From a virus, in IMG/VR virus record IMGVR_UViG_3300045988_136451: a DNA stretch of 64,000 nucleotides; one strand, 5' to 3'. Both the position numbers and the translations under genes were made by a program. The first letter of the stretch is position 1. Every line of letters starts with the position of its first letter. The notes under the pieces were generated by a model. It searched no databases, was not told the DNA's origin, and saw only the letters and a list, made by a program, of their open reading frames with translations. Positions 5,745-61,939 of the stretch are shown here, in pieces.

Positions 5745-7676
5745 CTAGACTGCGGTGGTGCCGTTGATGGAGAACTTGATGTAGATGCGGTTGATGCCGT
5801 AGGTCGGCGTGTACCCCAAGCTGATGTTCACCTGCGTGGGGTCGGTCGCATCCTGCTCCACCGACGGGTCGGTGTACTCGGTCAGGTACCCGTCGGTCTG
5901 CATGCGCGACAGGAGCGCGGCGGTGCTGGACTTGATGTCGAGGAGCACCTGCGCGGTGGCGACAGAGCCGATGAAGCCCGACGCGAACGCGCGGCGCAGC
6001 GACTTCACGATGTAGAGCTTGCACATCTGGATGTTCAGCTCGCGCTTGACGACGGACGCGGTGGACGTGGTGATTCCTTGGATGACCGTCATGGCCGCGT
6101 TGATGTAGTCGATGAACAGAAGGCCGTTGTTCACTTGGTTCGTCTTGACCGTGGTGGTGAACGTCTCGTTCGGGCCGTACAGCCCGAGCACCTTCTTGTG
6201 CGTGAGCGGGTTGTACTGCGCCATGGATGACGCGAGACCGGCGACCGCCGCCGCGCCGTAGAAACCGGCGATTGCCTCGACCACGTTGGTCTGGCGGTTG
6301 CGGAACTGGAACGTCGCGGGCGAGACCAGCACGCAGTCCTCGCTCGCGATGGACTTCGCGTAGGCGATCATCTGGTCGGAGGTCACGGCCTCCTCGGTTC
6401 CGTCAGCGCCCATGAACGCTATGCGCTCGTCCGCGTTCTCCTTCATGGTGCGGATGTGCGCCTGCGCGGCGTTCCACACCTCCGGTGAGCCGGACACGGG
6501 GACAACGATGTCGATTCCCGAGACCTTGGTAAGCTGCTCGAACGCGTCCTCGAACGACTGGACGGTGTAGGTCGCGGCGCTGCCGCCCTGCGTGGCCGGG
6601 TTGCACGCAGCCGCGTAGAAGCCCGACAGGCCGCACAGCGACGCGATGTAGATCGCGAGGGACAGCGGGGACTGCACGTTGCCCGCAGCGTCCCACGGCA
6701 CGCCGTACACGTCGATGCACTCGTTGTAGGACGCGAAGTACTGCGGTGCGGTGTAAGCGTCCCCCTTGTAGTTGTACGAAACGACAACGCGGTCGCCGCT
6801 GCGGATGCCGCAATAGGCGTACGCGGCGTACATGTAGTTGCCCTTCGATTCGTCGAACGTCGGGATGCGGCTCGACGGCGTGCGCGATATGCGCCCCGTC
6901 TGGTAGTCCACAACGAAGTCGATGCCCTCGACGTATCCGCCCTCGACCTGACCGCTGCCGTTGCCGTCCGGAGTGTCGCCGTAGGCGTTGCCGTCGGTCG
7001 CGCTGGACACGATGACCACGGTGCTCTCGCCCGATTCGTCCTTCGACACGTAGGGATGGGAGAGCGTGTAGGCCGCCTCGCCGTTGAGCTGGACAGGCTC
7101 CGCCGTCGCCCAGTCGAACGATATGGACAGCTTGGTGTTGTTCGCCAGCGCCCCGCCGATCTTGGACGAGAACGTGCCCGTCTGGTAGTTGATGATGTAG
7201 TCGGTTCCCTCCACGTAGTTCTTCGACTTGTCGTCCTTGACCACGACCGTACCGGCGATGACGAAGCCCTCGATGGGGTTGTTCTCGCCGTCGAAGAGGA
7301 TGGAGAAGCTGGGCTGCGCGGAGAAATAGGTGTACTGCTTCTCCGTCACGGTATTCTTCGTGGTTGTGCTGCGCAGCAGCTTTCGCGCGATTGTCGCCTT
7401 CTGGTCTGCGCCCTGCACGACGGTGTAGTCCTGCTCGTTCACGAACTGAACGCCGCTGGACGCACTTGTGACGGTGTAGCTGTCGGCTATAACGCCCGCG
7501 TTGTTCAGCGGCACAGCGGTCACGCCTTCGAGCGTGATCTGCTGCGTGGCCGTGCGGAAGCCGATTGCGGGGCCGACGAAAGCGACCACGGCGTTCCCAC
7601 CCACTGTGGTATTCAGACGGGGGCCTTCTACTTCCTCCGTGTAGATACCCGGCAGCGAGTTGTTCAAATCAGCCAT
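5745..7676 (-). CDS. Tail sheath protein (about 643 aa)
   Basis: Start adjusted to MADLNNSLPGIYTEEV at 7676, with a GGAGAG ribosome-binding site. A large protein directly upstream of the tube gene implies a contractile tail. Confidence 0.55.
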   Translation of the reverse strand: MADLNNSLPGIYTEEVEGPRLNTTVGGNAVVAFVGPAIGFRTATQQITLEGVTAVPLNNAGVIADSYTVTSASSGVQFVNEQDYTVVQGADQKATIARKLLRSTTTKNTVTEKQYTYFSAQPSFSILFDGENNPIEGFVIAGTVVVKDDKSKNYVEGTDYIINYQTGTFSSKIGGALANNTKLSISFDWATAEPVQLNGEAAYTLSHPYVSKDESGESTVVIVSSATDGNAYGDTPDGNGSGQVEGGYVEGIDFVVDYQTGRISRTPSSRIPTFDESKGNYMYAAYAYCGIRSGDRVVVSYNYKGDAYTAPQYFASYNECIDVYGVPWDAAGNVQSPLSLAIYIASLCGLSGFYAAACNPATQGGSAATYTVQSFEDAFEQLTKVSGIDIVVPVSGSPEVWNAAQAHIRTMKENADERIAFMGADGTEEAVTSDQMIAYAKSIASEDCVLVSPATFQFRNRQTNVVEAIAGFYGAAAVAGLASSMAQYNPLTHKKVLGLYGPNETFTTTVKTNQVNNGLLFIDYINAAMTVIQGITTSTASVVKRELNIQMCKLYIVKSLRRAFASGFIGSVATAQVLLDIKSSTAALLSRMQTDGYLTEYTDPSVEQDATDPTQVNISLGYTPTYGINRIYIKFSINGTTAV

Positions 7677-7750
7677 GGGTACTCTCCTTCGATTGCTCGA
7701 CATTGACAATGACCCCATTTTAGACGAGAAAGATGCCCTCCGCCATGCCC

Positions 7751-8440
7751 TTAGATCGCAGGCTCGACGAACATGCCCTCCTCCGCCTGCTTCTCGCCCG
7801 TGATTATCACGTCAAGCTCGTCGGCGTCTATCATGAGATGCAGCTTGATCTTCTCGATGAACGTGGGGTTCACGCGGTCGATGTAGTAGAACTCGCCGCG
7901 CACCTTGAACGAGAACTGCTTGAACACCGTCACCAAGTCGTCGTCCCACGGAGTGCCCTTGCTGTCGTTGTTCGTCGTGTTCGATAGCGTCGCCATGTTA
8001 GGCTCTATGTTCACGTACGGGTTGTCCCGCAGGCACTGGCGGTACTTCGGGTCGATTCCGATTCCGCTCACGATGCAGTCGGCGAGGATGGCACCCTCGA
8101 CGGGGGAGTTCGCGTACACGTCGATGGTCACCCTGCCGCTGAAAACGTAGGCCGCAACGTCAACCCTGCCGCCGGTGCTCTTGTCGGTCACCATGACCCA
8201 CTCGTTCGGGGCGGCTGGCTGGAAGTCCTCGTTCACGTATCCCACGCGGACGTAGGGCCACGCCTCGGCCACGATGGGGTAGTCCGATTCGACCTTCAGG
8301 TCTTTGTAGCCGTGGACGGCGACCATCTCGGGAGATTGCAGGAACTTCCTGATGCTGTCGGTCGCAGCCGTAAGGCAGCTGTAGAAGTACCCCACGTGCT
8401 TCGGCTCGTGCCATACCATGTGCCCGTCGTTACTCATCAA
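7751..8440 (-). CDS. Hypothetical neck/tail-completion protein (229 aa)
   Basis: Track ORF between neck genes and the sheath gene. Confidence 0.3.
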   Translation of the reverse strand: MMSNDGHMVWHEPKHVGYFYSCLTAATDSIRKFLQSPEMVAVHGYKDLKVESDYPIVAEAWPYVRVGYVNEDFQPAAPNEWVMVTDKSTGGRVDVAAYVFSGRVTIDVYANSPVEGAILADCIVSGIGIDPKYRQCLRDNPYVNIEPNMATLSNTTNNDSKGTPWDDDLVTVFKQFSFKVRGEFYYIDRVNPTFIEKIKLHLMIDADELDVIITGEKQAEEGMFVEPAI

Positions 8441-10049
8441 TCCACTCCATCATCCCGCCGACGAAGGCGTAGTCTATGTCCTCGCTGTGCATCGCTATCG
8501 CGTCGTCTATCGCGTCGGCGATGAACTGCACGGGGCCGTGGCCCGGATGCACCCAGCTCCTCGATTGGCGCGTCTCCGGCATAAGCTCGCCGTCCTGACC
8601 GCGCACCCAGTACGTCTTCTCGCCCTTGCGCCACTGGTTGATGTTCGTCACCTTGCGGAACACGAGCTGGCCGCCGATCACCATGGGGACGGTGTTGTGC
8701 GTGACTATGTAATCGTTCGTGACGTACAACCCGTCCGCACTATCGACGAGGATGCAACGGCACTCCTCGCGTCCGGAAAAGGAAACGCTCTTGAATCTCC
8801 TGCACCAACACTTTGCGCTCTGATGCGCAACGTTGTCAAGATAGCGCTTCAGCTTCTTTTCGTAAGGGGCGAGGAACGGCACAACGCCGTTGTCGAACCT
8901 CATCTCGACGATGTACGCCACACCGTTTCGATATTTGCCGCTGCGCCTGTCCTCGTGAATATACGCATGGCCTCCGAGCGAAAGCGCTAGGCTCCGCACC
9001 TGCACCGCGAGGTCGCGGCACACCGTGGTGTACTGGCATATCGCACCGCGAGCGGCGCACGAGCCGTCCGTGTCCATGAGGCCCTGCAATAGAAGGACGC
9101 GATCTTCGACGCACGAAAGCATGTACTCTTCTGGGATGGTCTTGCCGTATGCGTCATGCCCCCATAGTCCGAGCGACCTGAACGCATCTATGAGCGGCGA
9201 TGTCGAATTGCCGCCGCGCCCCCAACGCGACGGCGCGGCATTGTAGCCGGGAGCGCCGCACGCCAACGCTATTCTAGCTCCATCTTCAGCGACCGCATGG
9301 GGGGTGACGCACTCCGGCACGAACCTCATGAACGTGTCGATGCCAGCCCCGTCATAACAGCAGAAGTACGGATACGGCCCCCGGAGGCATCCATCGCCTA
9401 TCATCGCTCCGACAAAATATGGATGCAATGGAAGATCGCGCTTGTCGAACATGATCTTCGGGGCAAGACGGATGCGCCAGCTATCGCCGTGCGTCCTCCC
9501 TATCCTTCCCATGAAGTCTTCTAACGGCATCACCCGATCATCGACCCATGCCCCGTTGCGCCTGACAGACCATAAGTGCTCTTTCGTGCATCTTGTATGG
9601 CCGCCGTCCGTGAACTCGACATCGTAAACGTCGCACATGCCCTGATCGTAAACATCGATCACCTTCACAGGCGCTCCGTCCGAGCCGATGACCAAGCATC
9701 CCGGCTCTATCTCCCCCATCGGCTTGAAGCCGTCGGGCGTGAGCACCGGCTCCGAGAGCGGCTGCGCCTTCCCGTACAGGCTCTTCATCGGGAACGTCTG
9801 GAAGCCGTTCTCTTGGTAGATGAGGTAGTGGTGCTCCGGCACGATGCCGACACCCGCGTAGCCAGCCGCGTAGTCGGGCGACGGGTAGAACGCCATCCTG
9901 CCGCCCTTGAACGTGGCGAATATGCCGCTTCCGTACTCCGCCGCGAGGTCGCATGCGGTCTCCGAAACCATGTCGAGCACGCGGTTCGCCAGACTTGTCC
10001 CGGTTAGGGGCATGTCGGCGTAAACGTCCTCGATCACTCGCTCGTCCAC
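8430..10049 (-). CDS. Neck/head-tail joining protein (about 204 aa of flanking host sequence) interrupted by an intein
   Basis: The flanking host sequence is 117 aa before and 87 aa after the intein. Block A at the intein N-terminus reads CLVIGSDGAPVKVIDV. LAGLIDADG motifs FVGAMIGDGCL and LLQGLMDTDGSC are present. The C-terminal junction is VTHN followed by T. Confidence 0.5.
   Translation of the reverse strand: MDERVIEDVYADMPLTGTSLANRVLDMVSETACDLAAEYGSGIFATFKGGRMAFYPSPDYAAGYAGVGIVPEHHYLIYQENGFQTFPMKSLYGKAQPLSEPVLTPDGFKPMGEIEPGCLVIGSDGAPVKVIDVYDQGMCDVYDVEFTDGGHTRCTKEHLWSVRRNGAWVDDRVMPLEDFMGRIGRTHGDSWRIRLAPKIMFDKRDLPLHPYFVGAMIGDGCLRGPYPYFCCYDGAGIDTFMRFVPECVTPHAVAEDGARIALACGAPGYNAAPSRWGRGGNSTSPLIDAFRSLGLWGHDAYGKTIPEEYMLSCVEDRVLLLQGLMDTDGSCAARGAICQYTTVCRDLAVQVRSLALSLGGHAYIHEDRRSGKYRNGVAYIVEMRFDNGVVPFLAPYEKKLKRYLDNVAHQSAKCWCRRFKSVSFSGREECRCILVDSADGLYVTNDYIVTHNTVPMVIGGQLVFRKVTNINQWRKGEKTYWVRGQDGELMPETRQSRSWVHPGHGPVQFIADAIDDAIAMHSEDIDYAFVGGMMEWIDE
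8694..9698 (-). mobile_element. Intein with LAGLIDADG homing endonuclease (about 335 aa) in the neck protein gene
   Basis: Hint N-terminal block, two LAGLIDADG motifs, and a C-terminal HN followed by Thr at the +1 position. Boundaries were placed by residue counting and are approximate. Confidence 0.5.
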
Positions 10050-10059
10050 GGGGAGCCTC

Positions 10060-10773
10060 CTACGGCCAAGACGGCTCGGACTGCCACTTGCCGCCGCTCT
10101 GGTTGTCGGAGTTCATGAGCTGCGGCGGGTCGCATACGTGGTCGCGCGACACCGTGAGCGAGTGCGGAGCGCCGCCCCACAGCTCGTCGGAATAGCGGAA
10201 GTCGGTAGGGAGCAGCAGCTTCGCCGTCCCGCTCTGCGACACGAGCATGCGCTGCAAGTTGGTCGTCATCTCGGTGTTGTTCGACGACACAACGCCCTGA
10301 ATCGTCTGGTACTTCACGGGGCCGTCCAGCTGGAAGATGCGACCGCGAAGCGTCACGAGCGTGCCGGTCATCTCCAACACCTCGCACAGCAGGTCGCCGT
10401 CGTGGTAGATCGGCTCGACCGCCATCTTCACCGTAACGTCGAACTTCTCGCGCGTGCCGTGGTTGTCGTACTCGGTGTTGTCGCTGCCGTTCTCGTTCAC
10501 CACCATGCGGCGCATCTCCAAAGGGCGGTAGCCTCCGTCGAACGTCGTGCCGTAGCAGTTCGGGCAGTCGTTCGGTCGCTTCGACTGGTGGTTCACCTCG
10601 TCCCAGCAGACCGGGCAGCGCTTCACGAGGCCGTCCGCGAGGTCTTGCAGCGTCCACATGCGGCGCACGAGCCACGTTGAGCCGCACAGCCTCATGCCGT
10701 CCTCGACGGCCTTCCTCGTGTAGAGGACTTCGCGGGAGACGTGCCCCGCGTCCCAGTAGGCGACCCGTCCCAT
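10060..10773 (-). CDS. Hypothetical protein with zinc-ribbon motif (237 aa)
   Basis: Track ORF containing CPVCWDEVNHQSKRPNDCPNCYG. Confidence 0.3.
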   Translation of the reverse strand: MGRVAYWDAGHVSREVLYTRKAVEDGMRLCGSTWLVRRMWTLQDLADGLVKRCPVCWDEVNHQSKRPNDCPNCYGTTFDGGYRPLEMRRMVVNENGSDNTEYDNHGTREKFDVTVKMAVEPIYHDGDLLCEVLEMTGTLVTLRGRIFQLDGPVKYQTIQGVVSSNNTEMTTNLQRMLVSQSGTAKLLLPTDFRYSDELWGGAPHSLTVSRDHVCDPPQLMNSDNQSGGKWQSEPSWP

Positions 10774-10774
10774 C

Positions 10775-11347
10775 CTAGCGCCCCCACCAAGGCAGGGCCT
10801 TCTCGTAGGAGCGGAAGAAGGGCCATCCCAGAGAGGCGTAGGGGGTGGATGCCCAGTCGATGAGCGCGATGGTGTTGTGCGCCGCGCTCATGTCCTGAAG
10901 GACGGTGGACAGCTTCTTGCCCGCCTCCTTCAGCTGGTTCTGGTAGTCGGTCAGCACGGACTGCCAGCGGTTGAGGTAGTCGCGGCGCACCACGTCCGGC
11001 GCGCCGACGCGGGACGTGTCCGGTATCTCGACGTAGCCGATTATGTACTGGCGTATTATCTCGATCTTCAAGGCGACCTCGAACGCCGCCGACAGGAATG
11101 GAACCGCCCACGGGAACGACTGCATGTCCCAGTTCGCGCTGGGGTGCATGCAGTACGTCATGAGGGTGCCGAGCGCCGCCGGGACGAGGGCAGCGTCAGC
11201 GTCGATGCTGTACGGCGTTACCTCTTCCAGAAACGGCCCCCAGTCGTTGTTGTCGAACTGCATGGTGAAGTAGGCGGCGACGTTGCGCACCGCCGACTGC
11301 GCGCCCTCCGGCAGGTCTGCGAACTTTATGCTTCCCTCTATCTCCAT
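10775..11347 (-). CDS. Hypothetical head-tail connector region protein (190 aa)
   Basis: Track ORF; position only. Confidence 0.3.
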   Translation of the reverse strand: MEIEGSIKFADLPEGAQSAVRNVAAYFTMQFDNNDWGPFLEEVTPYSIDADAALVPAALGTLMTYCMHPSANWDMQSFPWAVPFLSAAFEVALKIEIIRQYIIGYVEIPDTSRVGAPDVVRRDYLNRWQSVLTDYQNQLKEAGKKLSTVLQDMSAAHNTIALIDWASTPYASLGWPFFRSYEKALPWWGR

Positions 11348-11377
11348 GGTGCAGGCTCCTTCCCGCCGCGCCCAGAA

Positions 11378-11959
11378 CTACTCGTTGTCGAACACGGGAC
11401 GCGCGTCTGCGGGCGCGAGGGGCGACGTGGCGGCCTCTGCGGGCTTGGAAGCGTCCGAACCCTCTCCTTCTGCGTTCCCCGCCTCTGCGGGCTTCACAGG
11501 TGCCTCTGCGGGCTTCTTGGCGGCCTTCTCGTCGGCCTTCTTCGCCGCCGCGCCGGTCTTCGTCCACTTCCCGTCGATCAGCTCGTAGTCGTCGGGATTC
11601 TCGTCCTTGTGGCGACCGCAGAAGCGCGGAGCGTCCTCGTACCTCTCGCCCTCCGCGAGCTGCACGACGGCGTTGCACGGGTTGCCGTTCTTGAACACTC
11701 CGGGGCAGTGCACGGTGGTAAGAACCTCGGTGTCGCCCGCGTCGATGAGGTCGGCGACGGTCTCCTGCTCCTTCGCGGCCTTCGGCTTCTCGCCGTCCAC
11801 GATCTCGACGTAGCCGAGCGACACGAGCGTTCTGATCGCAGTGTCGTCCTCCTTCGCGTCGATCAGCGCCACGGTCTCGCCGGGTGCGATCTGGCGCTGG
11901 CGCTTGCCGTCGTTGTAGGCGAAGTTCTGGAATGTCTTGGACACGTTCTTCAAAAACAT
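11378..11959 (-). CDS. Hypothetical protein (about 193 aa)
   Basis: Start adjusted to MFLKNVSKTFQNF, preceded by an AAGGAGA ribosome-binding site. Has a Lys/Ala/Glu-rich C-terminal tail. Confidence 0.35.
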   Translation of the reverse strand: MFLKNVSKTFQNFAYNDGKRQRQIAPGETVALIDAKEDDTAIRTLVSLGYVEIVDGEKPKAAKEQETVADLIDAGDTEVLTTVHCPGVFKNGNPCNAVVQLAEGERYEDAPRFCGRHKDENPDDYELIDGKWTKTGAAAKKADEKAAKKPAEAPVKPAEAGNAEGEGSDASKPAEAATSPLAPADARPVFDNE

Positions 11960-12041
11960 GGCTTTCTCCTTACTTGCGGGTTGACTTTCCCTTGGTTGCA
12001 AAGTCTACCTCAAAACGGGAAGACGTGCGACATGCGCGGTG

Positions 12042-12057
12042 TCGATTAAATAATCGA
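12042..12057. repeat. AT-rich 16-bp palindrome TCGATTAAATAATCGA (site 1)
   Basis: Perfect 7-2-7 palindrome in a GC-rich intergenic region, 5 bp upstream of a TTGACA -35 box. Confidence 0.8.
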
Positions 12058-12062
12058 GGCCC

Positions 12063-12090
12063 TTGACAGGCCGTGCCCCCCCCCATAACG
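12063..12090 (+). promoter_or_regulatory. Orphan poly-C promoter-like element (TTGACA, 7 nt, C9 tract 12076..12084)
   Basis: Same TTGAC(A/T)-N7-C9 architecture as the four array promoters at 50.5-52.1 kb. No plus-strand ORF follows, and the shared terminator lies about 55 nt downstream. Confidence 0.45.
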
Positions 12091-12139
12091 GTTCCTTCGG
12101 GCGGCCAGATCAACATAGTCAGGCTCCCGACACCGGCGT

Positions 12140-12170
12140 AAAAAAAAGAACCCCTCTCGCGAGGGGTTCT
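12140..12170 (-). terminator. Rho-independent terminator downstream of the major capsid gene
   Basis: Hairpin GAACCCCTCTCGCGAGGGGTTC followed on the minus strand by T8. A 33-nt identical copy lies downstream of the endolysin gene at 52715..52746. Confidence 0.7.
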
Positions 12171-12183
12171 TCTCTTGCTGCGG

Positions 12184-13137
12184 TTAAGCTACATTCAAGT
12201 CCATGCGGACGACACCGTAGGAGTTGGCGATGATCTCGTTGATGAGTTCGCTGTACACCCAGCCGATGGTGAAGTTCTCGGCCTTGGGGTTGTCCACGCC
12301 GTCGAGCTGCTTCAGAATCGGCATCCAGCCAAGATACTCCGGCTCCGGAACGAGGTAAATCTTGTTCATCGGGCAGATGATCGAGGTCATGATGGAGAAG
12401 CGGCCCATCTTGGTGATCGGCTTGCCGTCCATCACGTCGTCGAGGAACTTAACGCCCGTGGTGTCGAGCTTCCACTTGTACAGGTCGTTCGCCGTCGCCG
12501 GGTTCATGATGACGCGGTTGGACTGCAAGCGGTTCTGGATGGCGATCTTCTCGGCATCGTAGAACGCGCCGGGGTTGATCTCGCCGGTGACCGTGGTCAC
12601 ATGCGAGGTGAGGCCCGCCCAGTCCGGGTTTTCGGAGGTGATCTTGGACACGGCAGCGTCGAGCGAGGAGAACAGGTAGCCGTCCTCCTGCTCCATGATG
12701 CGCTGCTCGGCCTCGCCCTTGGCGTAGTCCACCATGTTGATGGCGAGCTTGTAGATGTCCTCCTCGGCGATCTGGGGGAACGCCGCGATGCGGATGACCT
12801 CGTAGCGTACGCGGTTGCCCTCGTACTGCGCGATCTTCACTTCGTTGTCGTGCGGTTGCAGCTTGTAGGCCGCGCCGAACTCGGTGGTGATGTCGTAGAA
12901 CAGGCCAGCGCCCTGCGGCAGCGGGTCTTCCATCAGAACGGAGCGCACGATGCCCTCGTAGCGGAGACGCATGATGATCGGGCCTACCACGCCCTGCGCG
13001 ACCTTGGTGGACGCGAGACGCATGTCGTGGCGGTTGTCCGTCAGAATCTTGTTGAGCGCCGCCTGACGCTTCGCGGGGGACGACGGTTTCGCACCCATCT
13101 CCGCGACGATCTCGGCGGAAGTCTTAGGCATTGCCAT
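12184..13137 (-). CDS. Major capsid protein (317 aa)
   Basis: Follows the scaffold-like and decoration-like genes and is followed by a strong terminator. Its size and position match a major capsid protein. Family not identified. Confidence 0.5.
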   Translation of the reverse strand: MAMPKTSAEIVAEMGAKPSSPAKRQAALNKILTDNRHDMRLASTKVAQGVVGPIIMRLRYEGIVRSVLMEDPLPQGAGLFYDITTEFGAAYKLQPHDNEVKIAQYEGNRVRYEVIRIAAFPQIAEEDIYKLAINMVDYAKGEAEQRIMEQEDGYLFSSLDAAVSKITSENPDWAGLTSHVTTVTGEINPGAFYDAEKIAIQNRLQSNRVIMNPATANDLYKWKLDTTGVKFLDDVMDGKPITKMGRFSIMTSIICPMNKIYLVPEPEYLGWMPILKQLDGVDNPKAENFTIGWVYSELINEIIANSYGVVRMDLNVA

Positions 13138-42001: not shown

Positions 42002-42017
42002 TCGATTAAATAATCGA
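42002..42017. repeat. AT-rich palindrome TCGATTAAATAATCGA (site 4)
   Basis: Intergenic, upstream of gene 40803..41927. Confidence 0.8.
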
Positions 42018-46621: not shown

Positions 46622-46697
46622 AAAGCCTCCTTCCAGAACCTTTGACGACAGTCTACCATGTAAGAGAAGAAATTAAAAGAAGAATTAAGAATAAAAC

Positions 46698-46725
46698 GGG
46701 AACCCCCGCCGAAGCGGGGGTTCCG
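46698..46725 (-). terminator. Hairpin terminator downstream of the tail fibre gene
   Basis: Hairpin GGGAACCCCCGCCGAAGCGGGGGTTCC, followed on the minus strand by a T-rich tract. Confidence 0.5.
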
Positions 46726-46732
46726 GGAGGCC

Positions 46733-49700
46733 CTACGGCTCGATTATGAGAACCGCGTTCGCCGGTGCCGACGACGCGGCACCCACGTATATCTCCTTGG
46801 CCGTCGATGCCAAGGTGGTCGCCGTCACGGCGGTGACGTTGATCGAGATGTTGCCCGACAGGTCTCCGGCTCCGGAGCCTGCCGCGTTGCCGGTGAGCGA
46901 GAACGTCCGGGAAGCCGACAGCTTGCCAGCGCTCGTGGCGCTCGTGGCGGTGGTCGCGTTGCCCGACAGCGCGCCGTAGAACGTCGTGGCGTACATCGCC
47001 AAGAACTTGTTCGCGCTCGTGCCGACGGTCTTGGTGTTCGTGGCGGACGACAGGATGTTCCCAACGCCCGACATGTCGCCGGAGACGGCGGCGCTGCCGT
47101 CGAAGCTCTGCCCCCATAGGCCGCGCGCCGTGGCGAGCTTCGTTGCCGTCCCGGCGTTGCCGCTCACGGTCTTCTGCACGGGGTGCACGTGGTCTTCCCT
47201 CGCCCACTTCGTCGCCGTGCCGACCGCCGCCGTGGCCGCGACCTTCGGCGCTGCGGTTCCAGCGTAGGGAACGCCGACCGTCGTCCACGCCTCCGCGACC
47301 GTCGTGCCGCCGAAGCCGCCCTTCGACACCGCCACCGGGCTGATGAAGTCGGTTCCGCCGTTGGGCTGAACGTCTCCGACCACCACGAACTGCGTGCCGT
47401 CGTACATGACGAGGTACGGCACGGAGAGCCTGAAGTAGCCAGCCGTCGGGACGGCCACCGGCGTGCCGGTCTGGGTGAAGCGGCGTATGTTCTTCGCGCC
47501 GAGCGAGTTGATGTTGAGCGTCACGTCAACGCTCGCCGACGTGACCGACGGGACGATCACCAGCAAGCGCCCCTTCAGGCCCGCGAGCGTCGTTGCCCAC
47601 GGAGGCCCGGAGAGCGTGCCCGTGTACGCCGACGACGTTCCGGCGAGCGTGACGACGGGCGCGGACATGCGACCGTCAACCGTGTTGAGCGATATGAGGC
47701 CGTTCACGCTCGCGGACGCGACCGGTATCGCGGCAACCGTGTCCGAGACGATCTGGCGCTGGTCTGCGTCAGTCCAGTAGTCAACGCCGCGCACGGGCGT
47801 GTCGCCCTTCGGGATGCCGAACTCCAACTGCGCCGCGTTCGACGTTCCGGCGTTCACGACGGTCGCTTGGCTCCCCGGCGAGAGGGTCGTGGTTGACTTG
47901 ACGACGACGGTTGCGGCAGCGCCGTCAGCGCCCTTAGCGCCGGTCGCGCCCCTGTCGCCCTGCTCGCCCTTGTCGCCCTTCGCGCCGGTCTGGCCGACGG
48001 GGATGCCGAAGTCGAAGATCGCGTTCGACGACGTTCCGGCGTTCGTGACCGTGGGCGTGCTCCCCGGCGCGAGCTGCCGCACCGTTCCGACGGCGACGGT
48101 CGCCGCCAAGCCCGTGTCGCCCTTCGCCCCGGGGTCGCCCTTCTCGCCCTTAGCGCCGGTCGCGCCCTGCGGTATGCCGAAGTTGAACTGCGCCGCCGAT
48201 GCCGTTCCGACGTTCGCGACCGTGGCGCTGCTTCCCGGAGGCAGGGTCGTGACCGTGCCGACGGCGACGGTCGCGGCGGTTCCCGGTATGCCTTGGTCGC
48301 CCTTTGCTCCCGTGTCGCCCTTCGGCCCCTTCTCGCCGGTGTCGCCCTTGTCTCCCTTCGCGCCAGTGCCCCCCTTCGGGATGCCGAAGTCGAAGCGCGC
48401 TGCGGTCGCCGTGCCGACGTTGGACACCGTGGGCTGCGAGCCTGCGGGGAGGCTCGTCACGGTGCCGACCGTTATGGTCGCGGCGGTGCCGGGAACGCCC
48501 TGCGCGCCCTGCGGTATGGCGAAGTCGAGGATTGCCGCGTTCTCGGTGCCCTTGTTCACGACGGATGCGGGAGACCCGGCAGCGCCGGTCGTGACCGTGC
48601 CCACGTCTATCGTGGCCGCTTGGCCCTGCGCGCCCTGCGGGCCGCGCTCTCCCTGCGGGCCGGGGTCGCCCTTCTCGCCTTGCACGCCCTGCCCCCCTTG
48701 CGGGCCGCGCTCTCCCTGCTTGCCCTCGACCAAGCCGAAGTCGAGCACCGCCGCGCTCGCCGTGCCCTTGTTCTCGACAGTCGGCGAGCTTCCCGGAGGC
48801 AGCGACGTGACCTTGCCCACCGACACCGTTGCAGCGTCTCCCTTGTCGCCCTTCGCCCCCGTGTCGCCCTTGGCACCGGTGTCGCCCTTGTCGCCCTTGG
48901 GGATGGTGAAGTCGAGCACGGCGGAAGAGGACGTTCCGGAGTTGACGATCTGGGCCTCGCTCCCGGCAGCGCCGGTGGTGACCGTGCCGACCGACACCGT
49001 TGCAGCCTGTCCCGGTATTCCTTGGTCGCCCTGCGGGCCTTGGTCGCCCTGCTGGCCTTGGATTGGGCCGACGTTCTGCCAGTCGTTCGTGCTCCCGGCG
49101 ACCCACACCCACAAGTCGCCCTTGATCGTGTAAGCGTCGCCGACCTCGCCCGTGGGATGGGCCGCCTTCAGCTCCTCGTAGGAGCCGTACGTTCCTTTGA
49201 TGACGACGCTCGTGCCGTCGGCACCCTTGTCGCCCGGGTCGCCCTTGTCCCCCTTGGGGCCTTGGGGTATGCCGAAGTTGAACAGCGCCGCGTTCGGCGT
49301 GCCCGCGTTGTCAACGGTCGCTTTGCTTCCAGCAGGGAGCGTCGTCGTGGTTCCAACGGTGATCGTGGCCGCTTGGCCCTGCTGCCCTTGCGGCCCCGTG
49401 TCCCCCTTCGCGCCCGTCTCGCCCTTCTCGCCCTGAACCAAGCCGAAGTCGAGCACGGCGGAAAGCGACGAGCCGGAGTTCACGACAGTCGGCGAGCTTC
49501 CCGGAGGCAGCGACGTGACCGTGCCGACCGTTACGGTCGCGGCCTGTCCGGGCGCGCCGGTGTCGCCCTTGTCGCCCTTCGCGCCGTCTTGGCCCGCAAG
49601 ACCCTGCGGCCCTCTCTCGCCCTGCATGCCCTGTATGCCCTGCGGGCCTTGGGGTATCGTGAAGTTGAACACCGCGTTCGTGGTGTCGCCGGAGTTCGTG

Positions 49701-50485
49701 ACCTGCGCTGCCGTGCCGGGGTCTCCGGTCGTGACCGTGCCCACCGCGATGGTGGCGGCTATGCCGGGGTCTCCCTTGTCGCCCTGCTCGCCCTGCAAGC
49801 CGCGCGGCCCAGTCGCTCCCGTGTCGCCCTTCGGGCCTTGCTCGCCCCTCTCCCCTTGCTCGCCCTTCGGGCCTTGCTCTCCCTGCGGCCCCCTCTCGCC
49901 CTGTATGCCCTGCGGCCCCTGCTCGCCCTGCTCGCCCTTGTCGCCCTTCGCGCCCTTGGGCAGGAAGAAGTTCAGAACGGGGTTCTGCACCGTGCCGGTG
50001 ATCGTCACCTGCGGGGTGTCCGACGTTGCGACGGTTCCGATGGTGAAGTGCGGTATCAGCTCGCCGCTGTCGAGGCGGTCGTTTATCTCCTTGATCTGCG
50101 CGTATATCTGGGCGAGAATCTTGTTGAACTCGTCCTGCGTCTGGTTCACCTCGTAAAGGTGGGCGCGCATGATGCGGCGGGCGAACGCGATGTAGGCCAC
50201 GCGGTAGAACTTCGTGTTGTAGTCGTAGGCGAGGAAGTCGCCCATGATGTCGGTTATGGTCTCGTCGGCTGGGTTGACCACGTAGTGGTCGCTGATCTCG
50301 TTCGCCTTGATGTCAACCTGCTGCTTCTGGTCTGGGTCGAAAATCTCGTCGATCTTCGCGCACAGCGCCGCGAGGTCGGTCACTTCCAAGACCTCGTACA
50401 AAGCGCCCGTGAGGGTGTTCGTAATCCAGTCGCCGAGATTGACGGCTGTTCCGTTCTTGTCTACCAGCATCTCGCGCTCCTTCAA
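46733..50485 (-). CDS. Collagen-like modular tail fibre protein (1250 aa)
   Basis: The N-terminal region is globular. After it come about 12 tandem units of G-X-Y collagen triplets followed by a roughly 35-aa module [38 protein letters not shown]. The C-terminal region is Ala/Thr/Ser/Gly-rich. Confidence 0.7.
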
Positions 50486-50611: not shown

Positions 50612-51052
50612 ATGGCGGTGTTGAAGTATCGAGGTTCGGGCGGAACTATCCAGACCCTCTTGGACGTGACCGGCACGCTGGCGCGCATCGGCGCGTTGGA
50701 GACGAAGACGAACAACCTCCAAACGACCGTCAACGCCCTCAACGCCTCCTCCGGCTGGAAAAGGCTGTCGAAGAACTGCTGGTACAAGAAGGTCGGCCTG
50801 TGGTGCACAGTCCAATGCGACTACATAAGCCTGTCGGCGAGCACGTGGAAGACCCTCGGAACCCTCCCTGCCGGTTACAGGCCGGTGGTCACGGGGCTGA
50901 CCGACGAGGGCAAAGTCGTGTCGGGCGCGGCGTTCCATCGCGGCGAGAACAACATAGGCCTAATCGAGATTAACGGCTCCGGCGTGGTGAGCATGTACGC
51001 GACCGTCGCGAGCGATTATTGGTCTGCGAACATCGTGTTCCCCTGCGCTTGA
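50612..51052 (+). CDS. Array paralog 1 (146 aa): conserved N-terminal helix and variable C-terminal beta-rich domain
   Basis: Starts MAVLKYRGSGGTIQTLLDVTGTLARIGALETK, shared with paralogs 3 and 4. The C-terminal domain is unique and Trp/Cys-rich. Confidence 0.6.
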   Translation: MAVLKYRGSGGTIQTLLDVTGTLARIGALETKTNNLQTTVNALNASSGWKRLSKNCWYKKVGLWCTVQCDYISLSASTWKTLGTLPAGYRPVVTGLTDEGKVVSGAAFHRGENNIGLIEINGSGVVSMYATVASDYWSANIVFPCA

Positions 51053-51079
51053 CAACGCTTGCCCCCCCCCAGTTACCAT
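51049..51079 (+). promoter_or_regulatory. Array promoter 2: TTGACA, 19-bp spacer containing C9 (51062..51070), TACCAT
   Basis: Same architecture as promoter 1. Confidence 0.55.
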
Positions 51080-51106
51080 TGCCGGGTAAACGGACGGAGG
51101 GCTGCA

Positions 51107-51607
51107 ATGGCGAAGTTGAAGTACCGCAAAGGCTCTGACATATTCGAGATTTTCGACACGGACGACATCAAGGCGCTCCAAACGAAGGTGGACGAGGTGC
51201 CGAGGCTCCCGACGTTCGGCTCGACCTCCGGCAACTGGCCCTTCGGAGTGGTCTACTGGAACGTCAGCGCCGACAAGAAGCGCCTGTCGCTCCATGGGAA
51301 CATCTACTTCGACAGCTGCGGCGACGCGTGGAGCGCCATGAAGGCGATACCGGGCGGAGCGTCGAACGAGTGGGGCTTGCAGGTCGCAACTCCGCTCGGA
51401 GCGCAATCCAAAGCCCTCTGGATACCTGCCGTCGGCTTCTCCACCACGAACTCCACCATATCGGCCCAGAACTTCGGTCGCCTTACCATGAAGATAGGCA
51501 CCGACGGCTACTGCTACGTATTCCCGACGACGACAAAGCCGGAGGGCGACGGCCCGTTCTCGTGCTTCATAGATTGCTGGTACATGAGCATAGCGGACTA
51601 CGCTTGA
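51107..51607 (+). CDS. Array paralog 2 (166 aa)
   Basis: ATG at 51107 (MAKLKYRKGSDIFEIFDTDDIKALQTKVDEV). The track ORF 51059..51607 includes an upstream extension. Confidence 0.55.
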   Translation: MAKLKYRKGSDIFEIFDTDDIKALQTKVDEVPRLPTFGSTSGNWPFGVVYWNVSADKKRLSLHGNIYFDSCGDAWSAMKAIPGGASNEWGLQVATPLGAQSKALWIPAVGFSTTNSTISAQNFGRLTMKIGTDGYCYVFPTTTKPEGDGPFSCFIDCWYMSIADYA

Positions 51608-51634
51608 CATTTTCTGCCCCCCCCCTGTTACGAT
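51604..51634 (+). promoter_or_regulatory. Array promoter 3: TTGACA, 19-bp spacer containing C9 (51617..51625), TACGAT
   Basis: Same architecture as promoter 1. Confidence 0.55.
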
Positions 51635-51659
51635 CTTCGCCGATGAAAGGAAGGGTCGA

Positions 51660-52103
51660 ATGGCAATCATCAAGTACAGGGGCAGCGGCGGCGTTGTCGA
51701 ACTGCTCGACGTGGGGGCGCTGCTGGGCCGGGTGAGCGCCTTGGAAACGAAGGTCGCGTCGTTCGACCGGGCGACATCGGGGATATGGAAATACGAGAAG
51801 CGCTCCGACGGCACCTGCGTCTGCGAGGGCCAGCAGACGCGCACGGTCAACATAGAGAACATATATTCGGGGAACATCTACTACGGCGACTTCGCCGCCG
51901 TCTCGTTCCCCAGCGGGCTGTTCACCGCAGTGCCGGACGTTCGCGCGACGATTCAATCGGCACCAGCGACCGTGTGGGTCGCGACGGCCTCGAACTCGAA
52001 GCCGTCAACGTCGTCAACGCAGACGGTGCGCCTGCTGTCGGGCGGCCCGGAGACGAGCATATCCGTCACGGTCTCCTACCGCGCGGTCGGTCGCTGGAAG
52101 TAG
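51660..52103 (+). CDS. Array paralog 3 (147 aa)
   Basis: Starts MAIIKYRGSGGVVELLDVGALLGRVSALETKVASFDRA and then has a unique C-terminal domain. Confidence 0.6.
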   Translation: MAIIKYRGSGGVVELLDVGALLGRVSALETKVASFDRATSGIWKYEKRSDGTCVCEGQQTRTVNIENIYSGNIYYGDFAAVSFPSGLFTAVPDVRATIQSAPATVWVATASNSKPSTSSTQTVRLLSGGPETSISVTVSYRAVGRWK

Positions 52104-52104
52104 C

Positions 52105-52135
52105 CTTGACTTTCCGTGCCCCCCCCCTGTTACGC
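52105..52135 (+). promoter_or_regulatory. Array promoter 4: TTGACT, 19-bp spacer containing C9 (52118..52126), TACGCT
   Basis: Same architecture as promoter 1. Confidence 0.5.
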
Positions 52136-52164
52136 TTTCCCGAAACACTCGGAAGGGAGAGGGA

Positions 52165-52638
52165 ATGGCGAAGCTGAAGTACAGGGGCACGGGCGGCGTG
52201 GTCGAGCTTCTTGACATCTCGAACGTTCTCAACCGCCTGTCGTCGCTCGAAGCCAAGATGACGGCGGTCGAGACAAAGCTGACGGTCAAGTCCGACGGTT
52301 TATGGCGTTATCTCGTCCTCGGCTCCTTCGTCATCGGATGGCGCACCGACCGTTTCGTCGTGCCGCAATGGAACTCGTGGGGCAATCTCTGGGAAAGCTC
52401 CGCAAAGCTCTCTTCGGTCATCTATCCGGGCGGCTATCAGGGGAAGTTCTCGCAAGTCGCCCTGTTCTGCAACGCCAAGAACGTCGGAGAGGTCACATCG
52501 TGCGGCGTGGAGTTCGAGGACAGCTCGACCCCGGACGTTCTCAACAAGTTTCCCAACGTGTACCTGCTGCGCCCGAACAACGCGGGCACGAACGTGACGT
52601 ACGACGTGTACCGCATGTTCATAGGTCAGCTCAAATGA
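52165..52638 (+). CDS. Array paralog 4 (157 aa)
   Basis: Starts MAKLKYRGTGGVVELLDISNVLNRLSSLEAKMTAVETKL and then has a unique C-terminal domain. Confidence 0.6.
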   Translation: MAKLKYRGTGGVVELLDISNVLNRLSSLEAKMTAVETKLTVKSDGLWRYLVLGSFVIGWRTDRFVVPQWNSWGNLWESSAKLSSVIYPGGYQGKFSQVALFCNAKNVGEVTSCGVEFEDSSTPDVLNKFPNVYLLRPNNAGTNVTYDVYRMFIGQLK

Positions 52639-52714
52639 CGGCTTGACAACCTCCGCCCCAGCTGAACAGAACGTCGTACGCGACCGAAGTGCCCGTCAAC
52701 TTGATTGGCGGCGT

Positions 52715-52746
52715 AAAAAAAAGAACCCCTCTCGCGAGGGGTTCTT
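52715..52746. terminator. Bidirectional terminator shared by the paralog array and the endolysin gene
   Basis: AAAAAAAAGAACCCCTCTCGCGAGGGGTTCTTC, identical over 33 nt to the terminator at 12140..12170. Confidence 0.65.
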
Positions 52747-52760
52747 CATTCGCTGCGGCT

Positions 52761-53930
52761 TTACAGGTAGATGACCTGACCGGGGTAGATCACGTTCGGG
52801 TCGGAGATGCCGTTCTTCGCGGCGAGGCCCATGTAGTTGGAACCCCAGCCGTTGCTCGCGGCGATTGCGGAAAGGTTGTCGCCCTCCCGAACCGTGTAGG
52901 TTCCGCCTCCGCCGACCTCCGCCGCCGCGCCGCCGTTGGTCAGGGCGATGTTGCCGATGTCGATTGCTGCGGTCACCTGACCGTCTCGACCGATCACCGC
53001 GCGGCGACCGTCAAGCTCCATCACGACGTAGGTGCCGTGGACGGCGAGCGGGGTGCCGTTCTCGTCAACGGGCGTGACGACCTTGACAAGCGAGCCGACC
53101 GAGATTGTCGGGGAGCCGCCGGAGCCGCCGCCGACCTTCGCGAGGTTGGAAGCGTCGATGGCCGCAGTGACCTGACCGCCGCGACCGATCACTATGCGGT
53201 TGCCGGACACCTCCATCACCTCGTATGTGCCGGAGGTCGCGAGCGACGTGCCGTTCACATCGACGGGGTTGGTCACGGTCACGATGTCGCCGACGCTGAA
53301 GGAGGCCGACGGCGCTGGCTCCGGGGAAGGCTCCGGCGGGACGTAGCTGCCGCCGTGAATCTCCTGCGGGAAGTCCCTGTAGCACTCGTTCGCGTCCAGA
53401 GGGCCGATGCCGCCGATGTAGGCGGTCGAGGTGTACTGCCAGATGTCCGCCGTGCCGTTGTAGGACAGGTCGGCACCGTACTCGGCGACCCAAGCGGTGT
53501 AGGGCAGGATGCGCATGTCCTGCGCGTTCGCGTTGTAGCGCCCGGTGTACCAGCCGAACCAGTACCCGGCGGCCTCGATCTGCGGGCCGACGACCTCGCA
53601 CGCGCGACGGTAGAACCATTCCAGACCCGGCTCCTCAACGTCGAGGTAGGCGGGGAAGCCCATCTCGGACGGGTCGGGGAGCAGGCGCAGCATGTGGGCC
53701 GCCTCGCTGTTCGCCATGGAATCGTTCGACGCGTAAGAGTACAGGTACACGCCGAAGGGGATGCCGAGGCGCTTGCACTCGGACATGTTGCGATGGTACT
53801 GCCGGTCGTCTTGGTTCGCGTAGTCGCTGCCGTAGCCGCAGGACAGGATTGCCCCGTCGATTCGGCCCACGAGGGCATCCCAGTTGATGGTGCCCTGATG
53901 GTGCGATACGTCGATGAGCGTCATTGTCAT
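52761..53930 (-). CDS. Endolysin: GH25 muramidase, two roughly 55-aa binding repeats and a C-terminal LysM (389 aa)
   Basis: N-terminus LIDVSHHQGTINWDALVGRIDGAILSCGYG. Two tandem repeats xSVGxxVxVxxPVDxNGTxLAxxGTYxVMExxGxRxVIGRxGQVTAAID. C-terminal LysM (TYTVREGDNLSAIA...GISDPNVIYPGQVIYL). Confidence 0.75.
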   Translation of the reverse strand: MTMTLIDVSHHQGTINWDALVGRIDGAILSCGYGSDYANQDDRQYHRNMSECKRLGIPFGVYLYSYASNDSMANSEAAHMLRLLPDPSEMGFPAYLDVEEPGLEWFYRRACEVVGPQIEAAGYWFGWYTGRYNANAQDMRILPYTAWVAEYGADLSYNGTADIWQYTSTAYIGGIGPLDANECYRDFPQEIHGGSYVPPEPSPEPAPSASFSVGDIVTVTNPVDVNGTSLATSGTYEVMEVSGNRIVIGRGGQVTAAIDASNLAKVGGGSGGSPTISVGSLVKVVTPVDENGTPLAVHGTYVVMELDGRRAVIGRDGQVTAAIDIGNIALTNGGAAAEVGGGGTYTVREGDNLSAIAASNGWGSNYMGLAAKNGISDPNVIYPGQVIYL

Positions 53931-54181: not shown

Positions 54182-54676
54182 CTACCAAGCGTCGGCGTGG
54201 ACTTCGACGGCCATGCCGTCCACCGTCTTGATTCTAAGGCCGTCCACGGCCTCCCAGCCGCCCGAAGGAACCGTTATGGGGGCGCAGGCCGCCTTGCGGT
54301 AAACCATGGCCTTGGAGACGTTCAGGGAGGCTCTGGCGTATATGCGCGTGCCCGCGTACTCGCCAAGGTATCTCTCCTCGTCGTCGAGAGCGTCCACCGC
54401 CTCGGACATCGCCCTCTCGACATCGGTCTCCCCGAGCGGGTTGTCGCCAACCCCCTCCAAGCCGAGCATCTGGTACATCTGCTCGCGCTCGATCACTTGG
54501 ATGCGGTCGTCGTACTCGTCGCGACCGTGGTAGAGGACGCGGAAGTCGTCGTCTCCCTCTTCGAGGACTTCGAGCGACCGGTACTTGCCTCCGGGAAGGT
54601 AGTAGGGGTTTGCGAAGTCGGAAGGCTCGAACACGGCCCCCGGCTTGATCTCGTCGTACGAAACGGGCGTAGCCAT
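54182..54676 (-). CDS. Hypothetical protein (164 aa)
   Basis: Track ORF. Confidence 0.3.
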   Translation of the reverse strand: MATPVSYDEIKPGAVFEPSDFANPYYLPGGKYRSLEVLEEGDDDFRVLYHGRDEYDDRIQVIEREQMYQMLGLEGVGDNPLGETDVERAMSEAVDALDDEERYLGEYAGTRIYARASLNVSKAMVYRKAACAPITVPSGGWEAVDGLRIKTVDGMAVEVHADAW

Positions 54677-56618: not shown

Positions 56619-56720
56619 GGTGCTCCTCCTAAACGAAACGGGCGGTGCCTTTTGACATCGCCCATTCTACAGGATGTAAAACAAGAAGTAAAGAGAAAAG
56701 TTAAGAAAAGAAATTAAGGC

Positions 56721-56954
56721 TTAACTTGCCAGATTGACGGTTGCATAGAAATGCTCGCCATAATATTCGAGGGTAAAATGAAACCCATTCGGCTTGTCGT
56801 CGAAAATGAACTCGCAGGTGCCGACGATGTTCGGCTTTGGCTCTGCGAACGCACTAAGAAGCGCCTCGTCCGGGGTCTCCCCGGTCACGCTGAAGCGATC
56901 TAGCGTTTCTCTATTCTCCGTCTTGGTCTTTACTTCGACATTGTAAACGTTCAT
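56721..56954 (-). CDS. Hypothetical small protein (77 aa)
   Basis: Track ORF. Confidence 0.25.
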   Translation of the reverse strand: MNVYNVEVKTKTENRETLDRFSVTGETPDEALLSAFAEPKPNIVGTCEFIFDDKPNGFHFTLEYYGEHFYATVNLAS

Positions 56955-57603: not shown

Positions 57604-58432
57604 GCCCATGCCCTGAACCTTGCCCTTTCCTCGCGCCGATACGCCAGCAGCTCCCTGTGCTGCCAGCATTCCTGATACTCGACCCGCCTCCCGTAGGAGC
57701 GCAGAAGCCGCTCGTGCTCCTTCAGGTCGTCCGGGCAGATGTGTCGCCGCTGCGGCCCTCCGGAATCATGACCTTGCAATGGCCCTCGTACGCCATTTCC
57801 CCCTCCTTACGCCGACAGCAGCACGGCCATGACGAACCCGCCGAGCAGGAACGCGACGGCGCACGGCACGACGAACGGCTCGACCTCCCGCTGCCACGCC
57901 TCGCGCCACTCCTGCTCGGTCATGCGCCCCCTGCCGTCCCCGAACTTCCTTGGAACGCGCCTCTGGCGGCTTCTGACGGCCCTGTGGGCCGAGTTGTCGG
58001 TATACATGGTGTCTTCCTTCCTACGCCCGTCTATAGGGCGTTACGCGAAGCCCTGCGGCTTCATTCTACACGATGTAAGATAAGAAGTAAAGAGAATAAA
58101 TTAAGAAAAGAAATTAAGATGGGCGCGGGCATGCTGCGTGTCCGAGGAGGGAAAGGCCAATGGATGCCCGTAGGCTGGGTTCGCCCGCGCCCGCACCGAT
58201 TGTCTCACGTCCGGGCTGCGGGCGAAAGCACCGTTTCACCGCTCGGACAAATCGAGGCGGGGAAGAATGTCGGCTGTCAGCTGGAACCCCTTCATGCATC
58301 CGAACCTGTCGGCTCCGAGCCGGTACGAGCCGAACGCGCACCCGGCGCACCCATCGTCGCCCATTTGCGGACGCATTCGCCGACGCTCGCGCATCCGCGC
58401 GCCATCCTGCACGCGTCCTCCTGTCGTCGTTC

Positions 58433-60701: not shown

Positions 60702-60862
60702 CCTATCACGTGTTAAGAAAAGAAGTCAAGTGAAAAGTGGGAAATATGAAGGGTATATGTAAAACAAGAATGTAAGAGAATAATTTAAGAAAAGAAGTTG
60801 AGATTAAAACCGATAGCGTGCAACATGGACGGCATCGGAGCGAACGAAGCGAAGGAGCGACC

Positions 60863-61916: not shown

Positions 61917-61939
61917 GGGGGGGGGCTTCGGCCCCCCCT
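61917..61939. terminator. Bidirectional hairpin G9-CTTCGG-C8
   Basis: Lies between the convergent genes 61622..61915 (plus) and 61939..62691 (minus). Confidence 0.5.

Follow-up and report, generated by a model that had tools for sequence, protein, structure and literature searches.

Why does a phage carry, in a gap between two genes of its main coding strand, the front half of a promoter with no gene behind it? The question is raised by positions 12042-12183 of a 64,000-nucleotide (nt) stretch of viral DNA (IMG/VR record IMGVR_UViG_3300045988_136451), the whole of which we call the window. It shares 99.4-99.8% identity with Eggerthella phage LE2-3 (MW679026.1). That tailed phage has a genome of 112 kb, which includes genes of a contractile tail (tail sheath, baseplate); its host of isolation is Eggerthella lenta DSM 2243, and its genes lie nearly all on the window's minus strand, the main coding strand. 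The site under study is a 223-nt spacer flanked by two minus-strand genes, the major capsid gene (12184-13137, stop codon 12184-12186; PHROG 2522, E = 6.5e-61) and, across the spacer, the next main-strand gene after it (11378-11960). Elsewhere in the window, at 50612-52638, four paralogous plus-strand genes form an array of cassettes, each behind a TTGAC[A/T]-N7-C9 element. A preliminary description had seen in the spacer an orphan fifth copy of that promoter, and had proposed that it marked a deleted cassette slot, a slot not yet filled, or the start of a small or antisense RNA. We conclude, with a probability of about 0.85, that what lies here is left over from a promoter-gene-terminator module, which encoded a tail-fibre-tip (receptor-binding-type) protein of 160 amino acids (aa) on the plus strand and ran convergent to the capsid gene.

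The filled allele and the deletion scar

The allele with the gene still in place was found in L056, a metagenomic relative retrieved by a protein search with the 160-aa cassette (match P0038). L056 aligns to window 7122-12085 with 98.55% identity over 4,967 nt, a match that covers the next main-strand gene, its leader, a palindrome, the TTGACA and the C9. Beyond the C-run, L056 continues with AGT-TAGCAT (a -10 hexamer), a 5' untranslated region (5'UTR) with GAGGAGG, an ATG, a 160-codon open reading frame (ORF) ending ...GGCCAGATCAACATAGTCAAGCTCCCGACACCGGCATAA, then GAACCCCTCTCGCGAGGGGTTCTT, and the same terminator as in the window. The window is without 479 bp of this sequence, namely the -10, the 5'UTR and codons 1-148, and homology is back at window position 12102; in place of the missing 479 bp stands an 18-nt filler (12085-12102, plus strand). 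The comparison of relatives for a gene at this position thus bore out the deleted slot of the preliminary description.

What follows the filler is coding sequence. Positions 12103-12141 on the plus strand read GGC CAG ATC AAC ATA GTC AGG CTC CCG ACA CCG GCG TAA, which translates as GQINIVRLPTPA* and represents the last 12 codons and stop of the 160-aa cassette gene. This remnant is identical to the intact gene end of L056 at 37/39 nt, and to the array-end cassette of L045 and L046 at 32/37 nt and 11/12 aa. The 55 nt that follow the C-run, compared by blastn with the collected loci, gave the same answer: they matched the 3' end of the 160-aa gene, which is last in the arrays of L045, L046 and L047. 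The intact gene ends ...TGQINIVKLPTPA*, and its TAA runs into the A-tract of the same terminator type in L056, L045 and L046, as it does in the window remnant. There is therefore an intact homologue at the same position with a collinear left flank, and residual coding sequence in its original 3' context; with such coding remnants present, the site does not look like a slot that had yet to be filled.

The filler itself has a source within the window. The stretch 12080-12105 (CCCCCATAACGGTTCCTTCGGGCGGC), which comprises the filler and its flanking microhomologies, is the reverse complement of 54257-54282 at 26/26 nt, both by blastn and by direct reading. On the minus strand, 54257-54282 is a coding segment, APITVPSGG(W), of a 164-aa gene (54182-54676), and the L051 homologue of that gene reads APIVASSGGW at the same segment; since the segment is conserved there, gene 54182-54676 is the donor and the orphan site the copy. 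The left junction lies in the C-run, with at least 5 C common to the donor, and the right junction is GGC. The same scar is found in all seven LE2-3-like assemblies, and it therefore goes back to one ancestral event.

From these breakpoints and homologies we infer the following order of events. The ancestral spacer would have read palindrome, TTGACA, N7, poly-C, AGT, TAGCAT, ribosome-binding site, 160-codon ORF, bidirectional terminator and capsid stop. One illegitimate recombination or template-switch event would have taken out the 479 bp, with its left end in the poly-C (microhomology of 5 C or more) and its right end at GGC, 12 codons before the stop, and would have brought in 18 nt copied from the opposite-strand coding segment 42 kb away. 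Left over would be a -35 and poly-C without a -10, the filler, 12 codons and a stop, the capsid terminator and the palindrome. Template switching or microhomology-mediated repair is known to leave deletion scars in which templated filler sits at microhomology junctions. The present scar resembles them in having its breakpoints in short homologies (C5 or more; GGC) and 18 nt copied from the same genome; it differs in that its left breakpoint is a hypermutable tract, its donor is 42 kb off on the opposite strand and its mechanism is deduced from sequence only.

A cassette of this type, followed by a terminator of the same type, also occurs at the array end by the endolysin gene (52761-53930, minus strand, adjoining the end of the cassette array) in L045, L046, L047 and L058. 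A promoter-gene-terminator module has therefore existed at both loci, in keeping with the earlier suggestion that promoter and terminator belong to a movable module. In the window, the array end holds an older ghost of this cassette type (52643-52708, plus strand), with the promoter TTGACA-ACCTCCG-CCCC, the -10 lost, a 5'UTR remnant and the ORF end CGGCGTAA. It aligns to the promoter and 5'UTR of L045 and to the array end of L044, which keeps TTGACG-GCCCGTG-CCGCCCGCC and the ORF end ...GACACCGGCATAA. Such array-end ghosts are present in the window, L006, L048 and L044; they show TTGAC(A/G), a C-run broken by substitutions (ACCTCCGCCCC or CCGCCCGCC) and a destroyed -10, and retain a 5'UTR remnant like that of L045 and the last bases of the ORF. 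Judging from these alignments, both copies of the module are now ghosts in LE2-3-like phages. The recombination between the capsid and endolysin loci that had been suspected is supported by the cassette at both places and by the decayed promoter at the window's array end, and variation in array size (1 to 6 cassettes among relatives) together with the array-end ghost provides a precedent for cassette loss.

The promoter stub and its possible activity

What survives of the cassette promoter is its 5' half (12063-12084, plus strand), consisting of TTGACA at 12063-12068, GGCCGTG at 12069-12075 and C9 at 12076-12084, then ATAACGG, with no -10 after it. As far as it goes, this layout is that of the array. 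TTGAC[A/T] lies exactly 7 nt before C9 in 5/7 C9 runs of the window, all on the plus strand (sites at 12063, 50546, 51049, 51604 and 52106), a repeat search of the window groups the five copies into one family (D11), and the five-copy layout is not explained by chance. The element is nevertheless not a complete fifth promoter, as had been described, but one that lacks the -10, the deletion starting at the 3' edge of the C-run. Through the end of that run the stub equals the L056 promoter save for two bases in the N7, which is GGCCGTG in the orphan and ACCCGTG in L011 and L056; the array-end ghost of L044 has GCCCGTG, a close match to the orphan's.

The intact promoters of the family provide the standard of comparison. 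We collected the gene-attached promoters of the window, L002/L008 (which are LE2-3), L006, L007, L026 and L044-L051, and all 26 distinct variants (26/26) have TTGACN, 2-7 nt, C8-C12, 2-4 nt and TAnnnT. Their -10 versions are TACGAT, TACCAT, TATCAT, TATGAT, TAGAAT, TACAAT and TACGCT; the invariance of T1, A2 and T6 with variable middle positions is the signature expected of a real sigma-70-type -10 box. The total spacer between -35 and -10 is 15-21 bp, most commonly 19, and one and the same promoter varies in tract length between close relatives (for example C9 vs C12, or C9/C10/C11). The array promoters appear, from their sequences, to have the architecture of transcriptional phase variation, here in a phage. 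Measured against this set, a -10 of the form TAnnnT within 11 nt of the C-run occurs in 0/5 orphan variants vs 26/26 gene-attached variants, and a gene downstream of the orphan is present only in L056; the orphan does share with the family the -35 before the tract and the polymorphism of tract length (C9 in four and C10 in three of seven independent near-identical LE2-3-like assemblies, the lengths being those of assemblies and not of sequencing reads).

Searches for other signs of function gave little. As had been stated before, the interval from element to terminator in the window contains no ORF that has a ribosome-binding site. An Rfam scan of 11800-12400 by E-value returned only sub-threshold matches, the best being BSnc120 with 22.6 bits vs a gathering score of 114. 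A sigma-70 scan did not call the poly-C promoters; it accepts spacers of 16-18 bp, and the poly-C promoter spacer is 19 bp at C9. The sole flag of that scan was GCGACA-16-AATAAT, within the palindrome. We also considered and rejected an opposite-strand reading of the tracts as translation starts ('G9 + 6 nt + ATG'), which is true for 2/5 copies and yields ORFs that overlap real genes out of frame.

With neither a -10 nor a cargo, the stub is therefore most likely silent, with little or no transcription. Slippage of its C-tract between 9 and 10 C goes on all the same, since a homopolymer is unstable whether or not it has a function. Several points weigh against the reading of the region as the inactive remains of a deleted module. 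L056 is a single short-read metagenomic contig that stops inside the terminator repeat, so that its right neighbour is only presumed to be the capsid gene. A chimeric join in L056 is unlikely, because the stretch it has in common with other promoters falls short of a typical k-mer in length. The orphan's -35 and C-tract are intact, whereas the tract of the array-end ghost has decayed by substitutions, a difference that could reflect a recent scar or selection keeping the stub. Behind the C-run, at 17-bp spacing, stands TAACGG, which a single substitution would turn into TAnnnT and from which weak residual promoter activity may arise. Finally, the filler and the coding remnant together make a stable hairpin (-15.2 kcal/mol, z = -3.2) ahead of the terminator, a shape like that of a small RNA (sRNA).

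These last points feed the alternative that the stub is not inert, serving either as a tract-length-dependent convergent promoter, whose short hairpin RNA would tune capsid read-through into downstream structural genes, or as a homology arm for re-acquiring tip cassettes, with co-infecting relatives as their source, at a second locus apart from the main array. We regard this alternative as unlikely. In the first of its two forms, itself improbable, a working phase-variable promoter would make a plus-strand RNA of ~80 nt (hairpin and terminator), or an antisense RNA, acting on capsid-operon read-through or on the 3' end of the capsid mRNA. The perfect TTGACA and an uninterrupted tract that is still length-variable are what such a promoter would show, the predicted RNA 12095-12183 folds as two hairpins (-41 kcal/mol, z = -5.3) and the terminator hairpin can serve as a weak plus-strand terminator. 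However, there is no TAnnnT; the T at -7 is absent, and close relatives differ from one another at a nearby T (ACGGTT or ACGGCT). The folding energy comes mostly from the capsid terminator, and what lies downstream of the C-run is a mosaic of junction filler and coding remnant, not a conserved RNA gene, with no Rfam family reaching threshold and with all copies ~98% identical or more. The small or antisense RNA of the preliminary description finds no positive support in these results, and the element should not be annotated as a promoter or an sRNA gene.

Less probable still is that the site is kept as a docking site, in which the stub (a promoter arm of ~30 nt) and the ORF end with the terminator (an arm of ~90 nt) would let co-infecting relatives swap or re-insert tip cassettes by homologous recombination. 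Filled and empty alleles do coexist at ~98.5% background identity, one cassette type is present at both loci, accompanied at each by one terminator type, and the spacer holds other insertions in relatives (described below). Yet one arm, the left, is very short, neither a recombinase nor att-like sites turned up (LE2-3 is without an annotated integrase) and the arms give no sign of selection; simple deletion and ordinary recombination give the same pattern. A small protein is scarcely credible: the two candidate ORFs exist, one of 48 aa on the minus strand (11970-12116) across the G9 tract with GGGAG 8 nt upstream of its ATG, the other of 22 codons on the plus strand with a GTG start (12073-12141), but the former is frameshifted where the tract is G10 (LE2-3, L003, L011) and crosses both the palindrome and the junction scar, and the latter has no ribosome-binding site and is a fusion of filler and remnant.

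Terminator, palindrome and cassette array

The sequence that closes the region is an intrinsic terminator of the capsid gene (12140-12172, minus strand). Read on the minus strand it is GAAGAACCCCTC-GCGA-GAGGGGTTCTTC followed by T8, a GC-rich 12-bp stem with a GCGA loop and a run of eight U as in rho-independent terminators, and it folds with -29.7 kcal/mol (z = -5.7); on the plus strand the stem is the same, but the tail is only UUCUUCUCUU. The terminator is thus most likely the capsid gene's own in the first place, ending minus-strand capsid transcription, and not the partner of the orphan promoter for which it had been taken. It would once have worked both ways, between the capsid gene and the convergent cassette, and would now serve the minus strand only. 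Like known bidirectional terminators, it is one GC-rich hairpin with an A-tract and a T-rich tail, and it stands between convergent genes in L056, L045 and L026; unlike them, it has in the window only its capsid (minus-strand) partner left, and its plus-strand U-tail is weak. Between the capsid stop and the hairpin lies a short 3' untranslated region (3'UTR; 12173-12183, minus strand) containing GCTGCGG, common to the endolysin 3'UTR.

The 33-nt terminator occurs in exactly two copies in the window (0 expected), as the preliminary description had it, and the identity is longer than was stated. It really spans 39 nt, 12134-12172 being the same as 52709-52747, and the shared GCTGCGG comes next. 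The second 39-nt segment (52709-52747, minus strand) follows the endolysin gene at the end of the cassette array, and the copy at 52747-52720 was called as a minus-strand terminator with 12 pairs. Simple duplication and divergence of the two terminator loci was rejected as an account of the likeness, since the two loci, aligned directly, show no homology in the 55 nt from promoter to terminator. Several of the short-read contigs L053, L054, L055 and L056 end inside the capsid terminator or ~40 nt beyond it. Such ends fit a 39-nt exact repeat breaking de Bruijn assemblies, and metagenomic junctions at this place therefore need care.

At the other end of the region lies the inverted repeat TCGATTA-AA-TAATCGA (12042-12057, no strand assigned), a recurrent site before main-strand genes. 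The palindrome noted earlier is indeed present, but it is not a perfect one, its two 7-nt arms being parted by a central AA, nor does it belong to this spot alone. The window has five exact copies and one near-exact copy (14 matches counted on both strands vs 0.14 expected), at 12042, 39098, 39401, 42002, 59965 and 56016, with the consensus TCGAT(T/A)A(A/T)(A/T)TAATCGA, and the LE2-3 genome has at least nine. Most copies, in one orientation or the other, precede a main-strand start by no more than 100 nt, some of them standing 4-25 nt before the ribosome-binding site; the copy at 42002 tips a long terminator-like hairpin. The palindrome is kept at its position in the spacer in L030, L034, L035 and L056, and also in AT-rich relatives (40% GC), where it reads CTCAATTATTTTATTGAG, of the form TCAAT...ATTGA. 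Because of this recurrence and its conservation at the position, we assign it to the next main-strand gene, 11378-11960, of which it would be a regulatory site (operator or promoter element), and not to the orphan; it probably either binds a phage regulator or is a late-promoter element.

The proteins of the array have a common N-terminal signature, MA.(I/L)KYR..G...D, and divergent C-termini; the 160-aa cassette carries the signature of the four array proteins too. For two of the array's cassette types there are matches to tail-fibre PHROGs, at the C-terminal ends of the latter (E = 1.8e-12 and 1.1e-17). A Pfam search with the four array cassettes, a PDB sequence search with one cassette protein and a PHROGs search with the 160-aa cassette each returned nothing. 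In two cassettes the stop TGA sits inside the TTGACA of the next promoter. Divergent from the array is a 1250-aa tail-fibre gene (46733-50485, minus strand), in which collagen-like G-x-y stretches alternate with repeats of ~57-70 aa and which is 1127, 1250 or 1256 aa long among relatives. In an AT-rich relative (the L005 contig) no array was found with the endolysin and the tail-fibre N-terminus as queries.

In other relatives the spacer is occupied differently. In the AT-rich clade (L005 and L036-L043; capsid identity 87-88%) the gap between terminator and palindrome is 27 nt only. L030-L033 and L035 (capsid identity 94%) have a zinc-finger gene of 439-508 aa there on the main strand, and L034 (capsid identity 75%) has two unrelated opposite-strand genes, convergent with the capsid gene. 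On this comparison the spacer between capsid terminator and palindrome is an insertion hot spot, as judged from the sequences of these loci. Pfam and PHROGs were uninformative for the genes inserted in L030, L034 and L035. An IMG/VR scan by capsid alignment gave no further intermediate relatives, and from the metagenome scan came four loci only, two of them close and two distant. L030, L031, L032 and L035 carry a 77-aa gene (1194-1427 in L030) that lies two to three genes upstream of their capsid gene and has a precomputed Pfam match to the anti-CRISPR AcrIC5, which counters type I-C systems. A preprint (bioRxiv 10.1101/2022.05.20.492479) reports that a system of this type is active in E. lenta.

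Further homopolymer tracts occur outside the array and the capsid-side slot. In the window there are seven C/G9 runs (starting at 12076, 50559, 51062, 51617, 52119, 61690 and 61917), one C7 (61932-61938) and five runs of 6. The G/C homopolymers of LE2-3 are bimodal in length: 119 runs have 5 letters and five have 6, length 7 does not occur, and 16 runs have 8-10; 13/16 of the long runs read G on the main coding strand and 12/16 are followed by CA. The bimodal lengths and the strand and CA bias suggest a genome-wide set of selected hypermutable tracts. Outside the window, LE2-3 70381-73957 (L009 20381-23957) has five G8-G9 tracts in a cluster of small paralogous tail-collar-like or tail-fibre genes. 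Of these, LE23_93 and LE23_97 as annotated are out of frame after the tract, with the conserved PHNNMPPY...W.RT end lost, and the tags 94 and 95 are missing; the cluster looks like frameshift-type phase variation.

Three more G8-G9 tracts, at LE2-3 100874, 105282 and 109872 (L010), lie 3-6 nt before the ATG of DNA polymerase III alpha, LE23_127 and LE23_137, at the Shine-Dalgarno position, and one of them is preceded by the palindrome variant CCGATTATTTAATCGAG. The two remaining runs of the window, at 61690-61698 and 61917-61938, have C9 on the minus strand. One is inside the plus-strand LE23_16 homologue, where the coding strand has G9, and the other, which lies between convergent genes, folds into a G7/C9 hairpin (GGGGGGGCCGAAGCCCCCCCCC) and is probably a terminator. 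A different repeat, AT-rich and ~48 nt long (ATGTAAGA.AAGAA.TAAAGAGAA.AA.TTAAGAAAAGAA.TTAAGAT), occurs at 46645-46705, 56674-56721, 58073-58120 and 60757-60817. When positions are mapped approximately onto LE2-3, at least one copy (60757) seems to lie immediately before a plus-strand operon, and GTTAAGA repeats resembling it precede the opposite-strand genes of L034; the repeat may represent a separate promoter class.

Cassette turnover and possible phase variation

Phase variation by a homopolymer in the promoter spacer is the type found in the poly-C promoters of Bordetella fim. It is also described for the poly-C of gonococcal fetA and the poly-G of meningococcal porA in PMC5320596 (citing Carson 2000 and van der Ende 1995), and gonococcal porA offers a precedent for such a promoter on a non-intact coding region (PMC5320596). 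The intact phage promoters resemble fetA and porA in having a -35, a C8-C12 tract and TAnnnT, in the difference of tract length between near-identical genomes and in the presence of several paralogous surface-recognition genes with one tract each. They differ in standing in a phage genome before tail-fibre-tip cassettes, in a spacer that is commonly 19 bp, longer than the classical optimum, and in being known here from sequence alone; the window copy, moreover, has lost its -10 and its gene. Among phages, hypermutable poly-G tracts have been reported in the receptor-binding-protein genes of Campylobacter Fletchervirus (Sorensen et al. 2021, as cited in PMC12633550). Those too are G/C homopolymers of ~8-11 nt tied to host-recognition genes, and the G8-G9 tracts in the tail genes of LE2-3 are a further likeness; but they lie in coding sequence and act by frameshift, whereas the LE2-3-like tracts of interest lie in promoter spacers. 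That survey of phage contingency loci (PMC12633550) does not mention promoters, and in the literature searched we found no description of a C8-C12 spacer-tract promoter design for phage host-recognition genes. A literature search for LE2-3 found no paper describing that phage; the E. lenta phage of PMC13131767 is a 44-kb siphovirus, unrelated to it.

The array and its vacated slot recall integron cassette sites only in the loose idea of an exchangeable small-gene array with an 'empty slot'. Unlike integron cassettes, each phage cassette has its own promoter, the boundaries are promoters with no attC-like repeats, and no integrase is annotated among the 142 features of LE2-3. The turnover of cassettes looks like homologous or illegitimate recombination, not like the integron type.

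Taken together, the scar itself is an ordinary gene remnant, and what is unusual is the variable-promoter cassette system around it. LE2-3-like phages gain and lose tail-fibre-tip modules at two loci, the endolysin-side array and the capsid-side slot, and each module would be driven by a promoter of the poly-C spacer-tract design known from bacterial surface antigens; the scar indicates that a hypermutable tract of this kind can double as the breakpoint of a larger rearrangement. It has been reported that E. lenta switches capsule types and thereby escapes phage (PMC13131767). Variable expression and turnover of the tip proteins would be a plausible counter-strategy to this capsule switching.

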